From: a virus
Direction: 5' to 3' (one strand)
IMG/VR virus record: IMGVR_UViG_3300038701_001143
Coordinates: 1 to 38,909 of that record
DNA length: 38,909 nucleotides
Shown: positions 2,993-38,909 of the stretch, one piece after another
Position numbering within the stretch: the first letter of the stretch is position 1
Layout of the letters: every line of letters begins with the position of its first letter
Position numbers and translations under genes: made by a program
Notes under the pieces: model-generated
Told to the model about the DNA's origin: nothing
Database searches by the model: none
What the model saw: only the letters and a program-made list of their open reading frames with translations

Positions 2993-3559
2993 ATGAGTCA
3001 AAAAAACATAGCCGAAGCCTTAGCAAAATCGCAAGGCCAAATGACAAGCGTAAGCAAGTCTAAAACAAACCCGCATTTCAAGTCAAAGTATGCAAGCCTT
3101 GACGATATTATTGAAATGTCTAAACCGATCCTATCAGAGAATGGATTGTCTGTTGTTCAAATGCCCATTATGAAAGATGGCATGTGTGGAGTCAGCACAA
3201 TTTTGTATCATTCAAGTGGTGAGTCTATCGATTGCGGTGAGGTCTTGTTACCTTTGGGCCGTGGTGGTGGAGCACAGGGAGCGGGATCAAGCATCACTTA
3301 TGCACGTCGCTATTCACTGGCTTCGATCCTCTGCATTGCTTGCGATGAAGACGACGACGGAAACCACGCACAAAAGGCGTATTCTGAGGATAAACAATCT
3401 GTACCCCAGAAGGCGACAAAGTTAGAGCTTGATCGATTTCTAACTGGATGCATTAATGAAAATCTAGTTCCACCTGATGACGCAAAGGATATGACTAGAC
3501 AACAATTAGTTGATACTTTTTTAAAGCTTCAGGCTGAAGCCAAAAAGGGGGCTGAATGA
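2993..3559 (+). CDS. erf: ERF-family single-strand annealing protein
   Basis: NPHFKSKYASLDDIIEMSKPILSENGL...HSSGE...GAGSSITYARRYSLASILCIACDEDDDGN is the ERF signature. Strong SD. Confidence 0.85.
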   Translation: MSQKNIAEALAKSQGQMTSVSKSKTNPHFKSKYASLDDIIEMSKPILSENGLSVVQMPIMKDGMCGVSTILYHSSGESIDCGEVLLPLGRGGGAQGAGSSITYARRYSLASILCIACDEDDDGNHAQKAYSEDKQSVPQKATKLELDRFLTGCINENLVPPDDAKDMTRQQLVDTFLKLQAEAKKGAE

Positions 3560-4251
3560 AAGACTTTAAAATCAGATGCAGCGCAATCGGTGAGATTATG
3601 GGGGGGCTGAAAACGGCCCTCCTAACCGACAAGCAAAAGGAAAGACTGGCAGAGCTTAGAGGCAAAGAAAAGCTGACAGAAAAGCAAACTGAAGAATTTG
3701 GAAAGCTTATCTCAAAGCGAGACAGTAAACCAGAGCTGACTAAGGGGGGCGTTTCATATTGCCAAAAATGGCTAAATCAGCAGATTTACGGGCATTATGA
3801 ATTCTGGAGCAAGGAAACTGAGAAGGGCAAACTGGTAGAACTTGACGCTATCAAATATCTAGACCCAAGCTTCGAAAGATACTGGGGCGATATGTTTGAA
3901 GATGATTACTTTACAGGGACTCCAGATGTCATACACGAGGACCGCATCATTGACATAAAAGCGCCATGGACGCACGACACTTTCCCGCGCTTTGATGAAA
4001 CTATACCCGATCTGAACTATATGTATCAAGTTCAAGGATATATGCACTTGACGGGTATAAAAAAGGGGACTGTGGCCTATGTCCTGATGAACACGCCCAA
4101 AGAGCTAGACAGAAAAGCGCTTGATTATGACTTTGTTCCGAGAAAACACAGGATCAAAGAGTTCCATTTTGAATATAATCCAAGCCTGATCGATACAATC
4201 AAAATGCGAGTGGATTTGTGTAGAGAATACATTTCTGGTTTAGATTTGTAA
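3556..4251 (+). CDS. YqaJ/lambda-Exo-like PD-(D/E)XK recombination exonuclease
   Basis: CSAIGEIMGG, ETEKGKLVELDA, GTPDVIHEDRIIDIKAP and YMYQVQGYMHLTG match YqaJ-type motifs. ATGA-coupled to erf. Confidence 0.7.
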   Translation: MKDFKIRCSAIGEIMGGLKTALLTDKQKERLAELRGKEKLTEKQTEEFGKLISKRDSKPELTKGGVSYCQKWLNQQIYGHYEFWSKETEKGKLVELDAIKYLDPSFERYWGDMFEDDYFTGTPDVIHEDRIIDIKAPWTHDTFPRFDETIPDLNYMYQVQGYMHLTGIKKGTVAYVLMNTPKELDRKALDYDFVPRKHRIKEFHFEYNPSLIDTIKMRVDLCREYISGLDL

Positions 4252-12062: not shown

Positions 12063-12839
12063 CTAGATTGCGTTCTCGTCTGCCGTTAAGAATCTACAAT
12101 CCATTGAAGCAGATAAGAGCCCCGCGCTTGAATGAGATGGTGCTTTTATTCCGGTAGCAATAGCGAAAGCCGTTTCATCTGTGTAGTCTCGATTATTCCA
12201 TTGATAAATAAAGGCGTATCGTGCCGCGTGTTGTGAGAATGGTTCCCATGTAGAGCGAACCCAAGCCGCACTCAAATGGTCTAGGTCAATCTTGCCTTTC
12301 TTCTCAATTCGTTTTATTGATCGACCTAGAATGCTTCCATTCTGACTTATTGAATTAGACACTTGAATACCTTGATGGAATGTTGGCACTGTTGCGCTAG
12401 CCCATTGCCCCCGCTCTGCCGTCATCACTTCACCAACAACAAGCTGTCTAATCAATAGCGTTCCAGTTCCTACAGTTATTACAAATCTTATTTTCCTTCC
12501 ACTTGAAACAGTGACACCTGTAAATTCATCAAAAATAAGCTTACCGCTTGTCGTTGATTGTGTTGATAAAGTTGTGAACGTGGAAGGGCTTGACTCATAT
12601 TGAAGGACAATTGAATGTGAGCCTGTGCCGGTGAAGGTTGCGACGTATAAAGCTACTGAATCAATATCCGTGTCTGTCGTCATGGTGTAATCTAGTGACC
12701 CGCTATCGCTAGAAAAATAACTATAATCGAGCCAATCCGTCGCGTTTGCAGGTCCAGAACCGCTTACAGTAGTTCCGGACCATGTTGGAGTTATGCCACG
12801 AAGAACATTTGAATAAAGAAACTTAGGCGTTATGGCCAT
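12063..12839 (-). CDS. Distal tail protein-like structural protein, assigned by position
   Basis: 258-aa beta-rich ORF immediately upstream of the hub gene. Confidence 0.4.
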   Translation of the reverse strand: MAITPKFLYSNVLRGITPTWSGTTVSGSGPANATDWLDYSYFSSDSGSLDYTMTTDTDIDSVALYVATFTGTGSHSIVLQYESSPSTFTTLSTQSTTSGKLIFDEFTGVTVSSGRKIRFVITVGTGTLLIRQLVVGEVMTAERGQWASATVPTFHQGIQVSNSISQNGSILGRSIKRIEKKGKIDLDHLSAAWVRSTWEPFSQHAARYAFIYQWNNRDYTDETAFAIATGIKAPSHSSAGLLSASMDCRFLTADENAI

Positions 12840-13527
12840 TTTTCGTCAACTCAATATTGTTAAGTGCTATATTTCTTTCACTTGCTGCCTCGTCCTCTGT
12901 TTGGTAGGTTCCGACATTTATGAATTTTCCATCAATCCTTAAATAAGCTTGGTAGTTCCCTGCTGCATTAACCCTGACGCCTTCATATTTAGATGTCTTC
13001 TTTCTTAAACATTTACTTCTTACATATTCAACGCCTAACCTAAGAGCCTCTTTATATTTATCAGAAGCTTCGGCAATTGTCTTAAATGTTCCAACTCTAT
13101 ATTTCTTTCCAGTTCTGGGGCACCTAAGAGTCGCGGCATAACCCCTTTGGGTTTTGCTTACCCCAGTAGGGAGCCCATTTTTCAAATTCCTTAACTGCAA
13201 TGATGTGTTTTCTCGATGAGTTAAATATGTTAAATTATCTATTTGATTATTTTCTTTATTACTATCTATGTGATGAACATGAACTTTATCTCCTTGCTCG
13301 CCTATAAAAGACCATGCAACAAGCCTATGAATGCCAAGTGTTCTAGGATGCTTTAGTGGATGATATAAATTAACTTGAAGATAGCCATTTGTAGACCTAT
13401 CTTTTTTTAAATTCTTCCCCCTCAAGCCTCTTCCATCTCTTCCAATTCTATCAACTGACCTGACATTTCCAAGATTACTGACTTGATAACAGCCCTCATA
13501 ACTTGGCACGTCTTTCCAAATTTCCAT
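12823..13527 (-). CDS. Free-standing homing endonuclease: NUMOD4 - HNH - 2x AP2 DNA-binding domains
   Basis: MEIWKDVPSYEGCYQVSNLGNVRS (NUMOD4). HRLVAWSFIG...VHHIDSNKENNQIDNLTYLTHRENT (HNH_3). GVSKTQRGYAATL...VGTFKTIAEASDKY and YEGVRVNAAGNYQAYL...VGTYQTEDEAA (AP2). I prefer the ATG at 13527 (GAGG upstream); the track extends to 13644. Confidence 0.8.
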   Translation of the reverse strand: MEIWKDVPSYEGCYQVSNLGNVRSVDRIGRDGRGLRGKNLKKDRSTNGYLQVNLYHPLKHPRTLGIHRLVAWSFIGEQGDKVHVHHIDSNKENNQIDNLTYLTHRENTSLQLRNLKNGLPTGVSKTQRGYAATLRCPRTGKKYRVGTFKTIAEASDKYKEALRLGVEYVRSKCLRKKTSKYEGVRVNAAGNYQAYLRIDGKFINVGTYQTEDEAASERNIALNNIELTKNGHNA

Positions 13528-13646
13528 TTTACTGACCTCTTGACCCCTGTTAAAAAATGAGGGGCTGCTCGGGGTCAGTAAAGAGCATACGATGGTAGCT
13601 AACCAAATCGCTGCCCCTCCAATGACATTATAGTTCAATAACATAT

Positions 13647-24570: not shown

Positions 24571-24624
24571 TAAACGCGCTGTTAGTATTTAGAGCCCCCA
24601 CGCGCAGGGCTTAACTATAAAATA

Positions 24625-24918
24625 TCAGCCATCGCCATCGCCATAGCCATCGCCATAGCCAGAACCATAGCCATCGCCATAGCCATCGCCATCGCCATAG
24701 CCAGAGCCATAGCCAGTGCCATAGCCATAGCCATAGCCATAGCCATAGCCAGAGCCAGAGCCATAGCCATCGCCATAGCCAGAGCCATAGCCAGAGCCAG
24801 AGCCAGAGCCATAGCCATCGCCATAGCCAGAGCCAGAGCCATAGCCAGAGCCAGAGCCATAGCCATTATCTTCTAAAGAATTTAACTCTGATGCATTCAA
24901 AACATATCGACTACTCAT
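24625..24918 (-). CDS. (X-Gly)40 Gly/Tyr/Ser/Asp repeat protein, 97 aa, unknown function
   Basis: The ATG at 24918 overlaps the upstream TAG (ATGAGTAG). Product is MSSRYVLNASELNSLED followed by 40 strict X-G dipeptides (18 Y, 12 S, 8 D, 1 N, 1 T). The track ORF extends to 24990. Confidence 0.55.
   Translation of the reverse strand: MSSRYVLNASELNSLEDNGYGSGSGYGSGSGYGDGYGSGSGSGYGSGYGDGYGSGSGYGYGYGYGYGTGYGSGYGDGDGYGDGYGSGYGDGYGDGDG
24628..24867. repeat. 240-bp hexanucleotide tandem repeat (GCCATA/GCCAGA/GCCATC units on the plus strand)
   Basis: 40 consecutive 6-nt units read directly. This keeps both the Gly-X frame and an Ala/Met/Leu frame open on the minus strand. Confidence 0.95.
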
Positions 24919-25285
24919 TATCCTGAGCCTCAACTGACCTAATAGACTTAGCTGCCTTTTTCGTACATACCAAAATTCCGCAAGCCTCAAGCATCACAGC
25001 ATCTTGACTCATTTCACAAGAAAACTTACAATCCTCTGCATTCCTTACGCCATATTCAGCCATGTCAGTCAAAACAAATCTAGAGTCATAGCGCCAAATC
25101 TGCCTAGCTTTTTTTAATGTCACAGTCTGTCCGCTAAATGAATGTAGGTAACCACTCATCACGCCTTGATTTCTACTTCTAACAATGACATATTTCAGCC
25201 CGTCTAGCTCATCAGGCTCACTACAAGCCGCGTCTTCTCGGATGTATTTCACATCGTCGATCATTAATGTTTCTGGTTTACTCAT
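24911..25285 (-). CDS. Hypothetical protein (terminase-adjacent family, possibly DUF6948-like)
   Basis: 124 aa. YVIVRSRNQGVMSGYLHSFSGQTVTLKKARQIWRYDS pattern that I recall next to terminases. Confidence 0.5.
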   Translation of the reverse strand: MSKPETLMIDDVKYIREDAACSEPDELDGLKYVIVRSRNQGVMSGYLHSFSGQTVTLKKARQIWRYDSRFVLTDMAEYGVRNAEDCKFSCEMSQDAVMLEACGILVCTKKAAKSIRSVEAQDNE

Positions 25286-25342
25286 TATTTCTCCTTGTTA
25301 AAACAGTATATTATTGTGCTCTTTTGGTGTGCAAGAATTAAT

Positions 25343-26993: not shown

Positions 26994-27358
26994 TCGTCTA
27001 TTCTATCACAATCTGTACTAAAACAATCATTTAATGAAAATGTACGAATCGGTTTTCTCTTAGATAGCGCATAAATCAACTCTTTTCTAACTCCGCTAGA
27101 CTCATCAACTCCATCAATATCAAGTATCCATAATTCGTCACACATATCAATCATGGCATAATCAATATTTTCCCATGTATCAAAACTCAATCCCATATCA
27201 TGCTTATTTGCGACTGGATGGGACTGAGCTATTGGCGATATGGGGCAGAACCCCATACCGATCAATTTTGAGCACCCGTCTAGGGCTAACTGGTACCTAG
27301 TTTCCATGACTGTCTTATCTGAATGGGTGTAAGGGCTAGCCATATATATAGTTTTCAT
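26990..27358 (-). CDS. DUF1937 / nucleoside 2-deoxyribosyltransferase-like fold protein
   Basis: IYMASPYTHSD...GFCPISPIAQSH...WENIDYAMIDMCDELWILDIDGVDESSGVRKELIYA pattern. TAATG and ATGA coupling to both neighbours. Confidence 0.5.
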   Translation of the reverse strand: MKTIYMASPYTHSDKTVMETRYQLALDGCSKLIGMGFCPISPIAQSHPVANKHDMGLSFDTWENIDYAMIDMCDELWILDIDGVDESSGVRKELIYALSKRKPIRTFSLNDCFSTDCDRIDE

Positions 27359-29733
27359 TACATAACTCCCATAATTTCAAATAAATCATCATGTTTGTCA
27401 TTTTGATTAATCTCAATAATATTTTTATTTTCAACTGGCTTTTTCTTCAATTTATTCGATTCAGTTTTATCATAAATTGGATCATCGCAAGGCCATAGCC
27501 TTTTCACATCACCGCTTGCTTCTTTTAGGTGCTCGTGAGCTGCATTGAAATAACTTGGCTTTAATTCACTTCCTTTAAATTTCCTACCCATTTCAAGAGA
27601 GACAACCCCCTCTGACCCAATGCCAGTAAATGGACTCAGTATAGTGTCATTCGGCAACGTCCACAATTCCAAGCATCTCTCTATCAAATCTAACTGAAGA
27701 GGGCAAATATGCCTTTCGTCTCTATCATCTCTTGCATGCTTAAAATTAAGAGTGTTTGACTGCCTTATGTTTTGCCATGTTGGTTGTGCTAAATTCTGCC
27801 ATCGGTCAACTGGGAATTGCTCTGGAGTATGAGACACAGGCTTTTTGTTAATTCCATCCTTTCTAAACGTCATTAGATAATCTGGTATACCTTGTCTATT
27901 CATAGCGCTATCCTTTTTTATCTGCTTCCATAATAGACCTAGAGCTTTGGTTCTTTGCATAGCCACTACTGGGCATTTCCATATAGTCACCTCTGACGCA
28001 TATATAAATCCATGTGACTGCATCATTTTGATTATTTCCCCCCTAAAGTCCCTAATGCCTATGAATCCATGCCTAGCTTTGGAAGTCGGCAAATTCATGC
28101 AATGAATTGATACTAGCCTACCTTCAGCCATTACTCTATAAAGCTCTTTTAGCATGAAGTCAAAATGTGTATAAAATTCGTTCTCAGATCTAGAATTTCC
28201 CATATCTCTATCATCATCAGAGTAAGTATATAGTGATGCGAAAGGTGGACTAAATATAGTGTAATCAATTGAGTTACTTTCTAAAGATGATACATAATCT
28301 ACACAATCACCATTATAAATTTCAAAATTATTATCTTTTTCAACTCTGCCGTTGCTTCTTGAGTCAATATTTAATTTTCTATCTTTCAATCCACCAGACT
28401 GAAAGCATCTCATGTGATCAATAATATTATCATACATAGACTTCATTTTATCATCTTTCACATTTATATTTTCAAGAACTGCTTCCTCAATATCGGCAGT
28501 GATAATATTTGCTGTGACTGATCTTTTTTGACCAAATCTATAACATCTTCTAACAGCTTGATAAAGCTGTTCATAAGAGTCATTTAAACCTACAAAAATC
28601 ATATTCGCGCATTGCTGCCAGTTCATGCCAAATCCCGCTATCTTTGGCTTAGTAATCAATATAGAATACTTACCAGAAGTAAATCCTAACAATCCATCCT
28701 TTTTGACACTATCCTTTTGTTGGCCAGATACCTCTACAACATCACTATATTTTTCACTTATGGCCTTGTGAATCATAGAACTCTCATCATTTAAATGACA
28801 CCAAATAAGTATGGGCTCATCTTCGCTATTAGATCTTATGTTATCAACTATATCTAGGCATCTATTAACTCTCTTTTCTATAGTATCTCGTCTAGCCCTA
28901 TTTCTACCAAGCAAACCCATTCCATTTTTTTCTAAATAGTCATTAATATCTAGTCCAGAATCAACTACATGATTTTTATAATTTAACTCTGGTAATTCAA
29001 AGTCGTTTTCAGGATGCCCAATATCCGATGGCCTTCTAAATATAACTGCCCAACTAGATACCCATGCCCAAAAATCCTCTTCACTATGTTTTTTAAGTCT
29101 CCATTTAGCACTCTCTTTGACATCATTTATAAAAAAAGTCGCCCACATTGACTCCTGAGACATGACCCCTAAAAATTCAGATTGACTTCCGAACTCCATA
29201 TAGTCATTTGGCGCAGGCGTAGCAGTCAAAGATAACCTATAATTAATATGGCTTATTTTTTCCATTACCATCATTCTGGTCTTGCTATCGCGGTGTTTAA
29301 GTATGCTCGATTCATCAAGAACTATCCCTGAAAACTCAGAAAAATCAATATTTTTTATCTGCTCATAATTCGTAACATAAACCCCATCTAAATTATCACA
29401 ATCTGAATCATAACGTTTAACATTAAGATTAAGCACTTCATTTGCTTCTCTCTGTGTTTGTTCAGCAATGCACAAAGGAGCCAATATAAGAACAGGCTTA
29501 CATGTCTCTATTCTTACGCGCTCTGCCCATTCGCATTGCATGATAGTCTTGCCCAATCCAGTATCTGCGAAAATCGCAGCTCTACCCTTTTTTAAAGCCC
29601 ATATAACAACATCTTTTTGATACCCAAATAATGATTCATGAACATTATCAACATTGAATCCAATGTCTTCCTGCACAACTCTCTTAGATTCTATAAAATC
29701 TCTGTATTCTGTGTTTAACATGTATCTCTCCAT
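27358..29733 (-). CDS. SNF2/SF2 helicase fused to a beta-class N4/N6 DNA methyltransferase
   Basis: Helicase motifs ADTGLGKT (aa 56-63), VLDESS (138-143), LTATPAPN, QAVRRCYRFGQ (392-402). MTase motifs SPPF (495-498), HICPLQ, LSPFTGIGSEG (699-709). The likely start is M5 at 29721 (GGAGAG 4 nt upstream). Confidence 0.8.
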   Translation of the reverse strand: MERYMLNTEYRDFIESKRVVQEDIGFNVDNVHESLFGYQKDVVIWALKKGRAAIFADTGLGKTIMQCEWAERVRIETCKPVLILAPLCIAEQTQREANEVLNLNVKRYDSDCDNLDGVYVTNYEQIKNIDFSEFSGIVLDESSILKHRDSKTRMMVMEKISHINYRLSLTATPAPNDYMEFGSQSEFLGVMSQESMWATFFINDVKESAKWRLKKHSEEDFWAWVSSWAVIFRRPSDIGHPENDFELPELNYKNHVVDSGLDINDYLEKNGMGLLGRNRARRDTIEKRVNRCLDIVDNIRSNSEDEPILIWCHLNDESSMIHKAISEKYSDVVEVSGQQKDSVKKDGLLGFTSGKYSILITKPKIAGFGMNWQQCANMIFVGLNDSYEQLYQAVRRCYRFGQKRSVTANIITADIEEAVLENINVKDDKMKSMYDNIIDHMRCFQSGGLKDRKLNIDSRSNGRVEKDNNFEIYNGDCVDYVSSLESNSIDYTIFSPPFASLYTYSDDDRDMGNSRSENEFYTHFDFMLKELYRVMAEGRLVSIHCMNLPTSKARHGFIGIRDFRGEIIKMMQSHGFIYASEVTIWKCPVVAMQRTKALGLLWKQIKKDSAMNRQGIPDYLMTFRKDGINKKPVSHTPEQFPVDRWQNLAQPTWQNIRQSNTLNFKHARDDRDERHICPLQLDLIERCLELWTLPNDTILSPFTGIGSEGVVSLEMGRKFKGSELKPSYFNAAHEHLKEASGDVKRLWPCDDPIYDKTESNKLKKKPVENKNIIEINQNDKHDDLFEIMGVM

Positions 29734-29884: not shown

Positions 29885-29952
29885 TATTCTAATCCACGAG
29901 CTAAAAATATCAAAGCGACCGCTAGCATCAAGTTGACCAAAGCTAATATCAT
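29884..29952 (-). CDS. Mini membrane peptide (22 aa)
   Basis: MILALVNLMLAVALIFLARGLE. ATGA overlap with the stop of 29949..30131. Confidence 0.3.
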   Translation of the reverse strand: MILALVNLMLAVALIFLARGLE

Positions 29953-30131
29953 TTCAAATCCTTAACAGCATCCCTATAGCCATTTCTAAACCCCACCTTA
30001 TACCCATTAACCCTAACCACCTCCAGAGACAAATACAGCCAATTTGGCATCGTTTCAAGCGTCGCCTCGTCATGATAGCAAGATATTTGATTTAAAAGCC
30101 AGTCAATTTGCTCTTTGTTTAGTTCGCTCAT
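29949..30131 (-). CDS. Hypothetical protein
   Basis: 60-aa ORF in the coupled chain. Confidence 0.5.
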   Translation of the reverse strand: MSELNKEQIDWLLNQISCYHDEATLETMPNWLYLSLEVVRVNGYKVGFRNGYRDAVKDLK

Positions 30132-32470: not shown

Positions 32471-32792
32471 TGCCTGATTCTATCTTTCGCTTGCTTTCTC
32501 TTGCTAAATTAGTGTAGTTCTGCTCATCATCATAGTTGTCTTCGTGAAAAACACCTTTATTCACTGACCTTATTGCTTTCATCAAGACCATCATTTGTTG
32601 CGCTACATCTGCCGGAATGTCTGGGATGTGAATATTGAAATGCTGTGATAGTATAGCCCCCCAGGATCGCCCTATATTATTCCAGTTTGGCAGTGGGTCG
32701 CCATAGGTTTTTTGTCTATCTGCCAAAATCTCCTCTGGAGTCTTAATTTGATTGGCATTATAGGCCCCCTCTATATCATCATATTTACTCAT
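32439..32792 (-). CDS. DUF6378-type (MazG-like all-alpha NTP-pyrophosphohydrolase-related) protein
   Basis: ILADRQKTYGDPLPNWNNIGRSWGAIL...IPADVAQQMMVLMKAIRSVNKGVFHEDNYDDEQNYTNLA fits the R...YG...N...iA..w...dv...m..K..R....H.D...D pattern. I prefer the ATG at 32792; the track start is 32855. Confidence 0.45.
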   Translation of the reverse strand: MSKYDDIEGAYNANQIKTPEEILADRQKTYGDPLPNWNNIGRSWGAILSQHFNIHIPDIPADVAQQMMVLMKAIRSVNKGVFHEDNYDDEQNYTNLARESKRKIESGNAFNDFQQQG

Positions 32793-32808
32793 TAAATCCC
32801 CTAAAATG

Positions 32809-32955: not shown

Positions 32956-33116
32956 CTTTGTTCCGTTATCTTTATAGTCGTGACGCTTTCCTCTTCCTGC
33001 ATATCCTGACCAACCCAAGTCAAATGAGTTTCAATACTTACTTTGACTGGATCGCCATTATTCAACTGATTAATGACATTTAAAAGAATCTCAATCGTGT
33101 CTTCTTGTTTACTCAT
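32952..33116 (-). CDS. Hypothetical acidic protein (54 aa)
   Basis: Below the track cutoff. GGAGAG lies 3 nt before the ATG at 33116. MSKQEDTIEILLNVINQLNNGDPVKVSIETHLTWVGQDMQEEESVTTIKITEQR. Confidence 0.5.
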   Translation of the reverse strand: MSKQEDTIEILLNVINQLNNGDPVKVSIETHLTWVGQDMQEEESVTTIKITEQR

Positions 33117-33139
33117 AATCTCTCCAAATTATAAAAACA

Positions 33140-34843: not shown

Positions 34844-35202
34844 TTTGAACCCATCCTATTTAAGTGTTTTTTCCATGCCTTCGTTGCCCCTTTCCATTGC
34901 GACAACTCTTTTCCTAAGAATTTCAAGCTTTGCTCAAGTCGGTTCAGCCTGTTGCCTTTGCCCGTTATCTTTGAAAGCTTTGTCTCTGCGGCGTGTGCGT
35001 CTTGTTTATATCCTTCTAGTTCTTTTTCTAAAGACTTTATTTTATTATCCCTGATGTAAAGCAAGTCATCACTCCTAAGCAAATCATCTTTAAGACGTTT
35101 GATCTCATCATGCCTACGACACATCTTATCGAGGTGCATAGCCTCAAGGTCAAGGTAGTCTTTTAGCGGCACTAGATCAAGCCGACTAAGTAGTTTTCTC
35201 AT
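34840..35202 (-). CDS. Coiled-coil protein
   Basis: 120-aa ORF with an AGGAGA SD. Confidence 0.55.
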   Translation of the reverse strand: MRKLLSRLDLVPLKDYLDLEAMHLDKMCRRHDEIKRLKDDLLRSDDLLYIRDNKIKSLEKELEGYKQDAHAAETKLSKITGKGNRLNRLEQSLKFLGKELSQWKGATKAWKKHLNRMGSK

Positions 35203-35270
35203 TGTGTTCTCTCCTGTTTTTGTTGATTATTATGGGCGCTTTGTGTGCGCAAGTGTTTTTTTGCTTTGAT

Positions 35271-35516
35271 TTACTCATCCCTCGTCACCTTCCTTTCAAT
35301 ATCATCAAGATAATGCTGCAATACAATTCCACCACCTCGATAGTTATAGTTTCTAGCCATGTCAAATAGGTCTTTAAACTTTTCCTTCAGCTCTGCGATC
35401 TCTTTCTTTAAATCAACTTTTTCACCAAACTGATTCTCAACTTTCTTCATCGCTACGTCATACCCTTTATACCACGCATTGCATCTTGGGTCACTTGTGT
35501 CGTATGGGTTACTCAT
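35271..35516 (-). CDS. Coiled-coil paralog D (shares its N-terminal 46 aa with paralog B)
   Basis: MSNPYDTSDPRCNAWYKGYDVAMKKVENQFGEKVDLKKEIAELKEK.... Starts and ends in a junction cassette. Confidence 0.6.
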   Translation of the reverse strand: MSNPYDTSDPRCNAWYKGYDVAMKKVENQFGEKVDLKKEIAELKEKFKDLFDMARNYNYRGGGIVLQHYLDDIERKVTRDE

Positions 35517-35527
35517 CCCTCGTCACC
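35380..35527. repeat. 148-bp direct repeat, copy 1 (4 mismatches to 36191..36338)
   Basis: Aligned by eye: differences only at gcgAtCtc/gcgTtTtc, accaCgc/accaAgc and gcaTctt/gcaCctt. Confidence 0.9.
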
Positions 35528-36010
35528 TCTAAATCTCAAACCAACTCTAGCGTTTCGCTCTTGCTCCATATTCTCCTTGAACTTCTCAAAAGAAATTTTA
35601 TCTCTATAAGACCTTGGTCTCATAATGTAGTTTCGTTTATAAATCCATTCAAGTTTATTCTTCAGCTCTGCGTTTTCTTCCTGCAAAGCGTTTCTTTCCC
35701 TGACTGCTCTTCCATTTCTAAGAATTAAATCTACATCTTTTCCGATCAAACAAGATGCTTTGGCTACTTCATCAGACTCATCACGCCATTTATTAAACGC
35801 ATCTCTTTGAATTTGGGCTGGTGCGCAATTATTAACGGTTGCAAACCATGAAAACATTAGGTCTATAACGTTCTCAAGCTCATTTTCCCTAAAATCATAC
35901 TCTTCTTTAGCATACCTTACTTGACCCTCCAAGGCTTTGACCTCTTTTTCTAGCTCATGGACTCTGTCGGTTGGTTGCATTGTTAATCTAACTCCGTTTG
36001 GTTCACTCAT
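35513..36010 (-). CDS. Coiled-coil paralog C
   Basis: 165 aa. Contains QEENAELKNK and ends ...RGDEG in a junction cassette. Confidence 0.6.
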   Translation of the reverse strand: MSEPNGVRLTMQPTDRVHELEKEVKALEGQVRYAKEEYDFRENELENVIDLMFSWFATVNNCAPAQIQRDAFNKWRDESDEVAKASCLIGKDVDLILRNGRAVRERNALQEENAELKNKLEWIYKRNYIMRPRSYRDKISFEKFKENMEQERNARVGLRFRGDEG

Positions 36011-36327
36011 CCCTCGTCACCTCCATTACTCTCCATTTCATCCATGATATTTTTAGTTCTAAACCCATAATCTAAAGCCTCAAAGATTCGATGCTTATAA
36101 ACTTGATCTATCTCACCATTTGAATCACGTTCGACCATAGTAGGTCTGGCATGAAGTAAAATAAAGCATTGCTCTTTTAACCAGTCTTCCTTTTCCTTCA
36201 GCTCTGCGTTTTCTTTCTTTAAATCAACTTTTTCACCAAACTGATTCTCAACTTTCTTCATCGCTACGTCATACCCTTTATACCAAGCATTGCACCTTGG
36301 GTCACTTGTGTCGTATGGGTTACTCAT
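36007..36327 (-). CDS. Coiled-coil paralog B
   Basis: 106 aa. N-terminus nearly identical to paralog D, then diverges after KKENAELKEK. Confidence 0.6.
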   Translation of the reverse strand: MSNPYDTSDPRCNAWYKGYDVAMKKVENQFGEKVDLKKENAELKEKEDWLKEQCFILLHARPTMVERDSNGEIDQVYKHRIFEALDYGFRTKNIMDEMESNGGDEG

Positions 36328-36338
36328 CCCTCGTCACC
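36191..36338. repeat. 148-bp direct repeat, copy 2
   Basis: See copy 1 at 35380..35527. Confidence 0.9.
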
Positions 36339-36586
36339 CTCCATTTATTTCTAAAGTCAATAATAACCTGTGCAACATTCATCATCCCTTCGAAAGTTTT
36401 ATCTTCTTTAAGAATCTTTTCTACTTCTTTTAGAACTTCTTTCAGCTCTGCGTTTTCTTTTTCTAGTTCTAAAAACTGAATCATCAAAGAATTGTTCTGT
36501 TCCTCAGTGATAACAACATGACGCTGTTGAATCGCATTAGACTCCAACTCAGCTCTAAGACTATTTAAATCTTCTCTTAAACTCAT
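36320..36586 (-). CDS. Coiled-coil paralog A
   Basis: 88 aa. Contains EKENAELKEV and ends ...VTRDE in a junction cassette. Confidence 0.6.
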   Translation of the reverse strand: MSLREDLNSLRAELESNAIQQRHVVITEEQNNSLMIQFLELEKENAELKEVLKEVEKILKEDKTFEGMMNVAQVIIDFRNKWRVTRDE

Positions 36587-37020
36587 TCCCCACCCTCCAA
36601 GTCATAACATGCCGAACCATCTCGCTGTTCCCATTCGTCAGCTAGTTGTTGCCATCCTATTAGTGTATTAGGTGCATTATCTGGAACTTCCAAACCTTCT
36701 GAATATATAGCAGAGACACTATAACAAACACCTTCAACCCATTCAGACTGTCTTATCTCAAGATTCGACGGGCAACTAACAGCATCCCACAACTTGCGCT
36801 TTGGTTTGGGTTTTAGGCGGCAGAATTGAAATGGCATTCCACCTGAATGGTAAAATAATATCCCGCCTTCTTTAACCCTAATTCCGCTAATAGGTCCGGG
36901 AGTTTCTGTGCATCTACTACTGTCTCCAAAGCGACACTCTTCCCCAATATGCTCAGCCAGAAAAGCAGCCGCTTCTTTTGGTGGTGTGTCGGGTCCGTAG
37001 GTTTTATTTTCCATTTTCAA
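36583..37020 (-). CDS. Hypothetical protein
   Basis: 145-aa ORF. Its end (EGGE, ATGA overlap) is a diverged junction cassette. Confidence 0.55.
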   Translation of the reverse strand: MKMENKTYGPDTPPKEAAAFLAEHIGEECRFGDSSRCTETPGPISGIRVKEGGILFYHSGGMPFQFCRLKPKPKRKLWDAVSCPSNLEIRQSEWVEGVCYSVSAIYSEGLEVPDNAPNTLIGWQQLADEWEQRDGSACYDLEGGE

Positions 37021-37264: not shown

Positions 37265-37693
37265 TTAATATTGATAAAGTTTAGGTTTTTTTGCAGCAAA
37301 CGCTTTACTCTTCGCAACTGCCAAAGTCTCCTTGATTTGCCCCATACATTCCTTGATCTTATCATCACTCGCAAGCGGTGGACTGATGTTCTGTCGCTGC
37401 TTACAATCAAAGCTGAAGCCTTTAAAGCTAGCTCTGAGATGTGGGCACGATTGAAACTTCTTCACAAAGAGCGGGTCAGAGAATGCGATGGGTAAACCTA
37501 TCGGGATCGCACATAGGTCTGTACCCGTATTTGTGTACACTGAATTATCACCATTTCTTGGAAACATCTGTTTGCCGCCAAAATTGTACTCTTCCCACTC
37601 CTGAAGAATGCCTTGATTCAATGCGAATGTACCGGCGCTTTCTTTGCGTTTTTCTTCGTCGTCCTGTTCTTGCTTGTTCCAGTTTTTACTCAT
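37265..37693 (-). CDS. Hypothetical protein
   Basis: 142-aa ORF overlapping the upstream stop by 8 nt. Confidence 0.55.
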   Translation of the reverse strand: MSKNWNKQEQDDEEKRKESAGTFALNQGILQEWEEYNFGGKQMFPRNGDNSVYTNTGTDLCAIPIGLPIAFSDPLFVKKFQSCPHLRASFKGFSFDCKQRQNISPPLASDDKIKECMGQIKETLAVAKSKAFAAKKPKLYQY

Positions 37694-38198: not shown

Positions 38199-38909
38199 GA
38201 TTCTAGCTCCTTAAATGTTTGTGTTGGTGTGTTATCTTCATGTGAATCCATAGCGTCAATCAGGTCATCCCATGCGTCACGCTTTGGCCCTGTTGGTTTA
38301 CTCGTCTGGTGAACAATGTCAACCGGCTTTGTTTTCTGCCAAGATTTGAGGTTTCCGATTGTACAAGCCTTATAAAACTGCAAGACAAATTGTTTATCGT
38401 CTGCGGTCTTGATGTGTTGCTCGTAGTAAAACCTTTTAATATCATCCATTGAAAAACCTGCCCGTCTAGCTGAGACGTATCGGCCTTGTGCGGTGTCGTG
38501 GTTTTTGTTGTGGGGGAATCCTGCAAGGTAATTCCAGAAGGTATCAAATTCAGCGTTTAGCTTTTTTGTTTCAGCAGCTTTTGCTGCGGCCTCCTCTCTC
38601 GACTTTGAATCGTCGTCAATTTCTTTTATACTTTTCTTTTCTTTATCTATATCTTTCTCTTTCTCTTTATCTAGGGAAACTTTCTTGTTAGTAACTTGCA
38701 AGTTATTTGTATGGTTATCCCTGAATTTCAGTAAGTTAGGTATTTCAATTCGACAGTTTTTTTCAGAAATATCGGCATGAAACAGCGAAAGTTTGACCAT
38801 AACTTGAGCAAACTTTGAGAATTTCTTTGGAGAAAGTTGGGCAAAACTTCCCCATTTCTTGAGAGAAAATTCAGCGAAACAGTCATTACTCGGCCCCATT
38901 TCATGGCCT
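38195..38909 (-). CDS. Replication organizer/initiator-like protein, C-terminal segment (continues from 240..128 across the junction)
   Basis: The frame is open to the window end. The track start at 38899 is an internal Met. KE-rich linker, then FDTFWNYLAGFPHNK...RAGFSMDDIKRFYYEQ. Confidence 0.6.
   Translation of the reverse strand, partial: GHEMGPSNDCFAEFSLKKWGSFAQLSPKKFSKFAQVMVKLSLFHADISEKNCRIEIPNLLKFRDNHTNNLQVTNKKVSLDKEKEKDIDKEKKSIKEIDDDSKSREEAAAKAAETKKLNAEFDTFWNYLAGFPHNKNHDTAQGRYVSARRAGFSMDDIKRFYYEQHIKTADDKQFVLQFYKACTIGNLKSWQKTKPVDIVHQTSKPTGPKRDAWDDLIDAMDSHEDNTPTQTFKELES
38783..38909. repeat. Terminal direct repeat, exact copy of 1..127
   Basis: Read directly; see the first feature. Confidence 0.95.

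Follow-up and report, generated by a model that had tools for sequence, protein, structure and literature searches.

The window analysed here is the whole 38,909-nt stretch of IMG/VR virus record IMGVR_UViG_3300038701_001143, a phage genome whose early/replication region contains an array of four small genes, which we call D, C, B, and A. These genes are joined by a 17-nt cassette, GGTGACGAGGGATGAGT, which occurs in four exact copies on the minus strand and combines stop codons for the upstream gene with the Shine-Dalgarno (SD) sequence and ATG of the next ORF. We found that the cassette is conserved irrespective of the frame in which the upstream gene reads it, that similarity between genes breaks off at the cassette and at a second short repeat located inside the genes, that the cargo between the repeats differs in relatives, and that these repeats are identical within a genome and different between genomes. 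We propose that the cassette is a strong translation-coupling junction that doubles as a short-homology crossover point, a reading on which our confidence and our doubt are evenly balanced. As judged from the arrangement of the locus, the modules would be reassorted by recombination, phage enzymes may carry it out, and translation of neighbouring genes would probably be coupled.

A repeated stop-start junction in an early-gene array

The four exact copies of GGTGACGAGGGATGAGT had been reported in a first-pass annotation of this DNA and were recovered in our search of the window, in which no other site matches the cassette with three or fewer mismatches. Dinucleotide shuffles are expected to contain 0.01 matches, and 0 of 100 shuffles gave four, placing the repeat far above chance. 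All four copies fall within 1.1 kb, and every copy of this asymmetric repeat sits on the coding strand, that is, in one orientation. Our ORF calls were the same as those made previously, with four ORFs carrying the C-termini already described and a 30-codon ORF behind the last cassette. The earlier suggestion that this short ORF is what is left of a lost module is conjectural. The genes and junctions of the array are listed below in their reading order.

36581–36599, minus strand: diverged junction ggagggtggggaATGAgt between a 145-aa gene and gene D; resembles GGTGGGGTAGAATG, which precedes a methylase gene in the related fragment L002 (described below)
36320–36586, minus strand: gene D, 88 aa, helical, C-terminus RVTRDE followed by TAA
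36322–36338, minus strand: cassette D/C, with the TAA of D just 3′ of the cassette and the ATG of C inside it
36007–36327, minus strand: gene C, 106 aa; N1 module, ENAELK motif, and a unique C-half ending GGDEG followed by TGA
36005–36021, minus strand: cassette C/B, with an overlapping ATGA as stop of C and start of B; 23 nt identical to the 5′ copy in L002
35513–36010, minus strand: gene B, 165 aa, predicted all-helical, C-terminus RGDEG followed by TGA; its sole homologue is P0006 in the related fragment L099 (described below)
35511–35527, minus strand: cassette B/A, with an overlapping ATGA as stop of B and start of A
35271–35516, minus strand: gene A, 81 aa; N1 module, motif, and a C-half homologous to the C-terminus of P0006; ends KVTRDE followed by TAA
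35273–35289, minus strand: cassette 3′ of A, in which A ends with TAA and the ATG opens only the 30-codon ORF
35186–35278, minus strand: 30-codon ORF that begins in the last cassette and overlaps the next gene at its start; coding status doubtful

Each cassette is composed of an extended SD sequence, (A/G)GGTGA, an invariant 6-nt spacer, CGAGGG, and the start ATG-AGT. In context, the repeats extend to about 23–31 nt, and their invariant positions include some that do not pair with 16S rRNA. The SD-like AGGTGA previously placed six nucleotides before the ATG is correct as a motif, except that the D/C copy has GGGTGA. The upstream stop overlaps the start codon as ATGA at C/B and B/A, and it lies 4 nt past the ATG (ATGAGTAA) at D/C and at the junction of A with the 30-codon ORF. 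The ORFs begun at the cassette ATGs start with MSN (C), MSE (B), MSN (A), and MSK (the 30-codon ORF).

Stop codons are present in three frames in all four copies (GG-TGA-CG, GGA-TGA, and GAG-TAA or GAG-TGA), in agreement with the first-pass annotation. The upstream genes use two of these frames, with B and C ending in GDEG-TGA and A and D ending in VTRDE-TAA. Because the cassette is read in two frames by its upstream genes, its conservation is that of a DNA or RNA element and not of a peptide tail. The earlier description of a frame-independent linker therefore stands as far as the nucleotide sequence is concerned, which is conserved whatever the upstream frame (in the two frames used) and at which similarity between genes begins. 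The weight that had been placed on the three-frame stops does not carry over, as these appear to be mostly a by-product. One TGA comes with the extended SD GGAGGTGA, and the two remaining stops come with the preferred start ATGAGTAA; because both are common in this genome, their combination largely accounts for stops in every frame. Stops in all three frames were also identified at 4 of the 43 other junctions of the genome.

The junction upstream of D, previously counted as a diverged fifth copy of the cassette, is real as a junction but is not found at up to three mismatches: ggagggtggggaATGAgt is 3 nt shorter than the cassette, carries two further differences, and has stops in one frame only. 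A junction of this second type, GGTGGGG(TAG)AATG with an overlapping stop, is present in both phages, at 36581–36599 before D in the window and at 249–272 before the methylase gene in L002 (GGTGGGGTAGAATG). It may be a cassette that has diverged, or it may belong to a second family of linkers.

The products of the array are probably small helical early proteins. Scans of all four against Pfam and PHROGs returned no credible family, and in a set of 15 billion proteins each of them is a singleton. For B, AlphaFold2 gave an all-helical model whose pLDDT of 61 is too poor for a fold search. A PDB sequence search with the array proteins matched only designed repeat proteins, and these matches were judged spurious. 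The source annotations of D as “RNase H-like nuclease (RuvC/YqgF)” and of B as “nucleic acid-binding protein” have no backing in Pfam or PHROGs and are likely coiled-coil noise. Apart from the motif region and the N1 that A and C share, similarity among the proteins is weak or absent. The C-halves of A and D share weak similarity (34% over 50 aa), and B, C, and D cannot be aligned as DNA outside the repeats.

A mid-gene repeat and mosaic joints

A second repeat, the in-frame 18-mer AGAAAACGCAGAGCTGAA encoding ENAELK, is located in the middle of all four genes, and each gene is accordingly laid out as cassette, N-half, motif, C-half, and cassette. This 18-mer is absent from the rest of the window, and 0 of 100 shuffles gave four matches. 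The exact repeats, both 17-mer and 18-mer, are identical also at synonymous sites. In C and A, the cassette, N1, and motif together form a duplicated 149-nt segment.

36441–36458, minus strand: AGAAAACGCAGAGCTGAA in D, exact
36197–36214, minus strand: AGAAAACGCAGAGCTGAA in C, exact; end point of the similarity with A and L002
35661–35678, minus strand: AGAAAACGCAGAGCTGAA in B, exact
35386–35403, minus strand: AGAAAACGCAGAGCTGAA in A, two mismatches (EIAELK)
36190–36338, minus strand: 149-nt segment in C (cassette, N1, and motif), 97% identical to the copy in A
35379–35527, minus strand: 149-nt segment in A (cassette, N1, and motif), the duplicate of the copy in C

The two N1 copies in the window differ at four positions. 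When A, C, and the corresponding L002 gene are aligned, identity starts at the cassette and stops at GCAGAGCT of the motif, and the outer flanks are unrelated. With breakpoints at the cassette and the motif, one N1 is thus combined with three C-halves and stands behind three different upstream gene ends. The first-pass annotation had considered whole ORFs as the modules and had overlooked both the mid-gene repeat and the duplicated N-module. Taken together, these two features indicate that half-genes, and not whole ORFs alone, would be the units of exchange. The motif by itself is not diagnostic, since the ENAELK 18-mer is common in unrelated phage coiled-coil genes, nine of which carry it in IMG/VR, in frame every time.

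Informative relatives in public data comprise two fragments, of 1.1 and 2.7 kb. The first, L002 (Logan ERR12177243, 1137 nt), comes from a sample other than that of the window and contains two cassettes, identical over 20–23 nt to the window copies. Upstream of its 5′ cassette, six more nucleotides (AATGGA...) match the end of C in the window, and 23 nt are thereby shared with the C/B junction. This L002 cassette precedes an N1 gene, whereas the window copy at C/B precedes B. The N1 of L002 differs from the window N1 at 9 of 107 nt (8.4%), and after the motif it continues into a third, different C-half. The N1 gene is followed by a C5 cytosine methylase (PF00145) that is not in the window; the C-terminus and stop of the methylase, ...LIKEVTRDE-TAA, lie in the second cassette, from which another gene (MSND...) is launched. 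For relatives of this phage, constant linkers with variable cargo had been predicted, and the prediction held in L002, with a cassette before N1 and again after a methylase that lacks a window counterpart. We also considered an upstream L002 gene stopping in the third frame (KWR-TGA), which is less likely given the 23-nt identity to the end of C (NGGDEG followed by the stop). All six cassettes of the window and L002 are identical despite the divergence of N1, with P ~0.012 if the copies evolve independently, a value that we regard as suggestive only.

The second fragment, L099 (JGI 3300041084, 2706 nt), encodes P0006, a 215-aa ORF and, in a search of 1.84 billion representatives, the sole homologue of B. 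Residues 41–162 of P0006 match B (40% identity, E 5e-22), and residues 171–209 match the C-half of A (38%, E 3e-8). Because the B-like and A-like parts lie in one ORF, the B/A cassette and the N1 of the window have no counterpart in L099, and the 17-mer is absent from this fragment. L099 contains two exact 19-nt pairs of its own. The first, GATGAGCAATAACAGCGAT, is located at the gene start (1238–1256) and just past the first motif (1586–1604), and the second, AAAGAACTCGAACAGGTGA (KELEQV), occupies the two motif positions (1554–1572 and 1758–1776). The internal copy of the start repeat has no in-frame stop, and the P0006 ORF reads through it. P0006 has the appearance of a fusion of B-like and A-like proteins, in which a 15-aa insertion begins by repeating the start of the gene itself (MSNNSD).

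Orthologous modules of the window and L099 share 38–50% protein identity. Their short repeats are identical within each genome, synonymous sites included, and different between the two genomes. As paralogous repeats are identical within a genome and orthologous positions differ between genomes, this pattern points to concerted evolution through exchange or conversion among the copies. Neither simple descent nor constraint at the protein level appears to explain it.

These comparisons also bear on the possibility that the repeats are passive remnants of a recent tandem duplication, representing those parts of paralogous genes that have not yet diverged. The 97% identity between the A and C copies of the 149-nt segment would be expected from such an event, as would the residual similarity of the A and D C-halves and the layout common to all four genes. 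However, B, C, and D are unalignable outside the repeats and yet exact within the 17-mer and 18-mer at synonymous sites too, and the cassette is read in two frames. The L002 cassette is identical behind an unrelated methylase gene, and the motif differs between the window and L099, whereas its copies are identical within each. We consider duplication without further exchange quite unlikely as the explanation.

The lineage is scarcely represented in public data, and wider searches yielded chance matches or none. The 17-mer matched once in IMG/VR, in a giant-virus metagenome-assembled genome judged to be a chance match, and 78 times as a single copy in metagenome contigs, where context and tblastn identified all matches as chance. 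A 19-mer gave six single matches in GTDB genomes, all of them chance. The 19-mers of L099 gave 0 matches and 1 chance match in IMG/VR. Protein scans of IMG/VR, for which B, the upstream 145-aa gene, and an alignment of B and P0006 served as queries, returned nothing or an uninformative match of 29% identity.

Translation signals and a possible route of exchange

Among the 46 genes examined, the cassette genes form the strongest SD:anti-SD duplexes, at −11 to −15 kcal/mol versus a median near −6.5. Together with the anatomy of the junction, this ranking suggests that the cassette is a strong translation-coupling initiation site. No promoter-like sites were identified at the cassettes, and the counts of promoters and terminators in the array equal the shuffle background. 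Nor was a stable RNA fold identified at the junctions (z −0.4 to +1.5 versus shuffles); a conserved RNA hairpin at the junction was rejected on the grounds that the folds are no better than those of shuffles, and an Rfam search gave no match. Starts of the ATGAGT and ATGAGTAAA kinds are also present at other places in the genome. The ATGAGTAAA (MSK) start context, with an AGGAGA-like SD before it, was observed at 25277–25295, 32784–32802, 33108–33126, 37685–37693, and 35270–35278, and ATGAGT or ATGAGC opens about 12 of roughly 65 genes. Another junction form, RGGxTTTGAAA-ATGA, recurs at 29949–30131, 30128, 34667, and 34843. The idea that the cassette is simply the general junction of this genome was rejected.

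The strength of these signals raises the question of whether the cassette is a purely translational element, kept as an optimal coupled initiation region or as the site of a translation factor, in which case mosaic joints would survive only at gene boundaries. The leading SD pairing of the cassette genes is in line with this, as are the unstructured junction RNA and the recurrence of ATGAGT and ATGAGTAAA starts in the genome. The SAS elements of cluster K mycobacteriophages provide a precedent, being conserved start-proximal repeats without any shown role in recombination (PMC3203893). SD function, however, does not need an invariant CGAGGG spacer, and illegitimate joints would not remake an identical 17–23-mer each time. 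The mid-gene repeat, the breakpoints located there, and the repeat pairs particular to L099 would also be left unexplained. On balance, a translational role alone seems unlikely.

A regulatory operator would be a further alternative, with the cassette serving as an RNA or DNA site that is bound or cleaved by a phage or host factor co-regulating the array. An asymmetric repeat in one orientation that spans the SD and AUG and has invariant positions without rRNA pairing would suit this role, for which T4 RegA or RegB and the L5 stoperators offer analogies. However, the copies number only four and are confined to a single array, and no repressor, integrase, or recognisable RNA-binding regulator was detected in the genome. 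Such an operator would also leave the mid-gene repeat and the mosaic breakpoints unexplained, and we regard it as very unlikely.

In the mechanism that we propose, the cassette would act at two levels. In the mRNA, the 17-mer would be the core of a junction of ~23 nt, through which the array would be translated as a tightly coupled and highly expressed early operon. In the DNA, the identical cassettes and the ENAELK 18-mers would serve as points of short-homology crossover or conversion, making the half-genes between them exchangeable modules. Exchange or conversion would take place during replication, plausibly by way of the Erf-type annealase and exonuclease of the phage, and would both reassort the modules and keep the repeats identical. 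Because stops are present in every frame, translation of any incoming upstream sequence would meet a stop after a few codons and start again at the next gene. Exchange at two short repeats during replication would probably be the most economical mechanism for what is observed at this locus. The two candidate enzymes are encoded as follows.

2993–3559, plus strand: Erf-family annealase, a candidate for short-homology exchange
3556–4251, plus strand: exonuclease, the other member of the Erf/exonuclease pair, with a putative role in exchange

In experiments, enzymes of the Erf/exonuclease class far outperformed RecA in recombining homology that is short or diverged (PMC3945230).

Several points weigh against the dual role. 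A length of 17–23 nt is short for efficient annealase-mediated exchange, and selection for a strong initiation region could by itself explain part of the conservation. The identity of the 18-mer is due in part to a peptide that is widespread and to the choice of codons. No upstream gene that we found uses the third-frame stop, GG-TGA-CG. The two short relatives provide few independent events, and the conservation statistic presupposes that the cassette copies evolve independently. Finally, no recombinant molecules or read-level variants were seen, and the independent Logan assembly is 100% identical in its overlap with the window.

The window corresponds to a complete phage genome of 38,782 bp, circular or circularly permuted, in which bases 1–127 are repeated exactly and directly as bases 38783–38909. 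The Logan contig L097 (SRR15330770) was assembled independently, is 100% identical, and reads across the joint between the end and the start of the window. We considered whether the order or copy number of the array could have arisen from mis-joining at the repeats during assembly, as the Logan unitigs break at the repeat shared by A and C, and neither B nor C is on record in the Logan gene index. These breaks, however, lie exactly 30 nt (k−1) into the shared 149-nt segment, where a k = 31 graph must break. This is the one repeat involved, it has two copies that differ at four positions, and D-N1-Cc-B-N1-Ca is the sole path that uses each segment once. In addition, L002 was obtained from another sample and has two cassettes on one contig. 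An assembly artefact is therefore extremely unlikely. As regards the SRR15330770 gene index, D and the 145-aa and 120-aa genes of the same phage are present in it, and B and likewise C are not. The unitig between the two N1 copies should hold B whole, and its absence may reflect a short-contig filter or heterogeneity of the sample.

The genome is of the siphovirus type and is read nearly entirely on the minus strand, encoding a terminase, portal, protease, capsid, tape measure, and tail fibre. Other genes include an SSB directly downstream of the array, a helicase-methyltransferase fusion, and RusA. Searches of INPHARED phages for near and distant DNA similarity gave no match, and the capsid and SSB share at most 36% identity with those of any cultured phage. 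Three further features of the genome were observed.

24573–24914, minus strand: 6/12-nt periodic repeat encoding a low-complexity tail of ~85 residues (GYGSGS/GYGDGY), located between the portal and terminase-side genes
12823–13644, minus strand: free-standing HNH endonuclease gene between the tape-measure and downstream tail genes
27358–29733, minus strand: 791-aa fusion of a SNF2/helicase and an N6/N4 DNA methyltransferase, with a 30% identical homologue in IMG/VR contig L100

Relation to known junction elements

ATGA stop-start overlaps are a known means of coupling translation in bacterial and phage operons. The array junctions share this arrangement, as the TGA of ATGA terminates B and C, the stop codons of A and D follow 4 nt past the ATG, and a strong SD lies in the upstream coding sequence. 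In its anatomy, with a stop that overlaps or abuts the start and an SD within the upstream gene, the cassette agrees with a coupled overlap. Ordinary coupled junctions, however, are not identical to one another over 17–23 nt, nor are they located at recombination breakpoints.

The first-pass annotation was not aware of a description of this specific linker; as a concept, however, it has three close precedents. The first comes from lambdoid phages, whose mosaicism prompted the proposal of short conserved boundary or “linker” sequences (Susskind & Botstein 1978; Clark et al. 2001, on HK620; both as cited in PMC3029335). The linker idea is usually dismissed, such sequences being rarely found at mosaic joints (PMC3029335). 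Like these linkers, the cassette is short, is shared by otherwise unrelated genes, is located at gene boundaries and mosaic joints, and has been proposed to be used in recombination. A conserved sequence at a mosaic joint is what we observed, with identity running from cassette to motif between unrelated flanks. Recombination inside the sequence itself would be supported indirectly, by the signs of concerted evolution. It differs from the linkers in being an exact multi-copy repeat in one tandem array and at the same time a stop/SD/start unit, and in being paired with a mid-gene repeat, as a result of which half-genes would be the units of exchange. The phage itself is also unrelated to the lambdoid phages.

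The second precedent is provided by the PeSL elements of T4-type phages, which consist of a sigma-70 promoter and a stem-loop terminator over tens of nucleotides, flank ORFan genes, and mediate modular shuffling (PMC2839356; PMC4122927). In both cases, repeated regulatory cassettes separate small early ORFan genes within a plastic region, the repeats delimit gains, losses, and replacements between relatives, and the downstream gene receives its expression signals from the repeat. Repeat-bounded gain or loss of genes was observed in our small sample, in the form of the methylase in L002 and the lack of the cassette and N1 in L099. In contrast to PeSLs, the cassette contains neither a sigma-70 promoter nor a stem-loop, the array has no terminator, and any action of the cassette would be in translation. 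Furthermore, the four cassettes compare with about 50 PeSLs, and no mini-circles were seen for the array.

The third precedent, the SAS of cluster K mycobacteriophages (Pope et al. 2011, PMC3203893), has the 13-bp consensus GGGATAGGAGCCC and is dispersed in 11–19 copies over the non-structural half of the genome. SAS and cassette are both asymmetric and occur in one orientation at the starts of non-structural genes belonging to different families, immediately before the ATG. Both add conserved positions, unable to pair with 16S rRNA, to an SD core, and both sometimes hold the upstream stop. The orientation, position, and SD core of the cassette (AGGTGA six nucleotides before the ATG) agree with those of SAS. 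The consensus GGGATAGGAGCCC, however, is not matched by GGTGACGAGGGATGAGT, and four cassettes in one array contrast with the dispersed SAS copies. SAS end 3–7 bp before the start codon, whereas the cassette includes the ATG and the second codon, and SAS are not tied to mosaic joints. The stoperators of cluster A mycobacteriophages are likewise distinct, as they combine an encoded repressor with many sites across the genome, whereas here we found no repressor or integrase, and sites only in the array. Overall, the cassette fits the “linker” concept and resembles a translational-level counterpart of PeSL, and it belongs to neither the SAS nor the PeSL family.

The locus bears on a long-standing argument about the origin of phage mosaicism, in which homologous exchange at short conserved linkers is set against random illegitimate joins that are then filtered by selection. 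Its joints lie exactly on two short perfect repeats, one of which is a complete stop/SD/start unit and the other of which is inside genes. The evidence is thin, coming from one genome and two fragments, and the locus is small (1.3 kb) and directly testable. A more far-reaching version, which we regard as speculative and quite improbable, is that of a combinatorial device, in which the annealase would use cassette and motif as paired crossover sites. Each infection cycle would then yield phages that differ in their N-half/C-half combinations and in their cargo genes, such as a methylase, within a highly expressed early array. Such a device would amount to a homologous-recombination “shufflon” for host-takeover or anti-defence proteins, with the all-frame stops selected for safe insertion. 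If the proposed mechanism is true, the cassette would represent a natural design for frame-independent, plug-in gene junctions.

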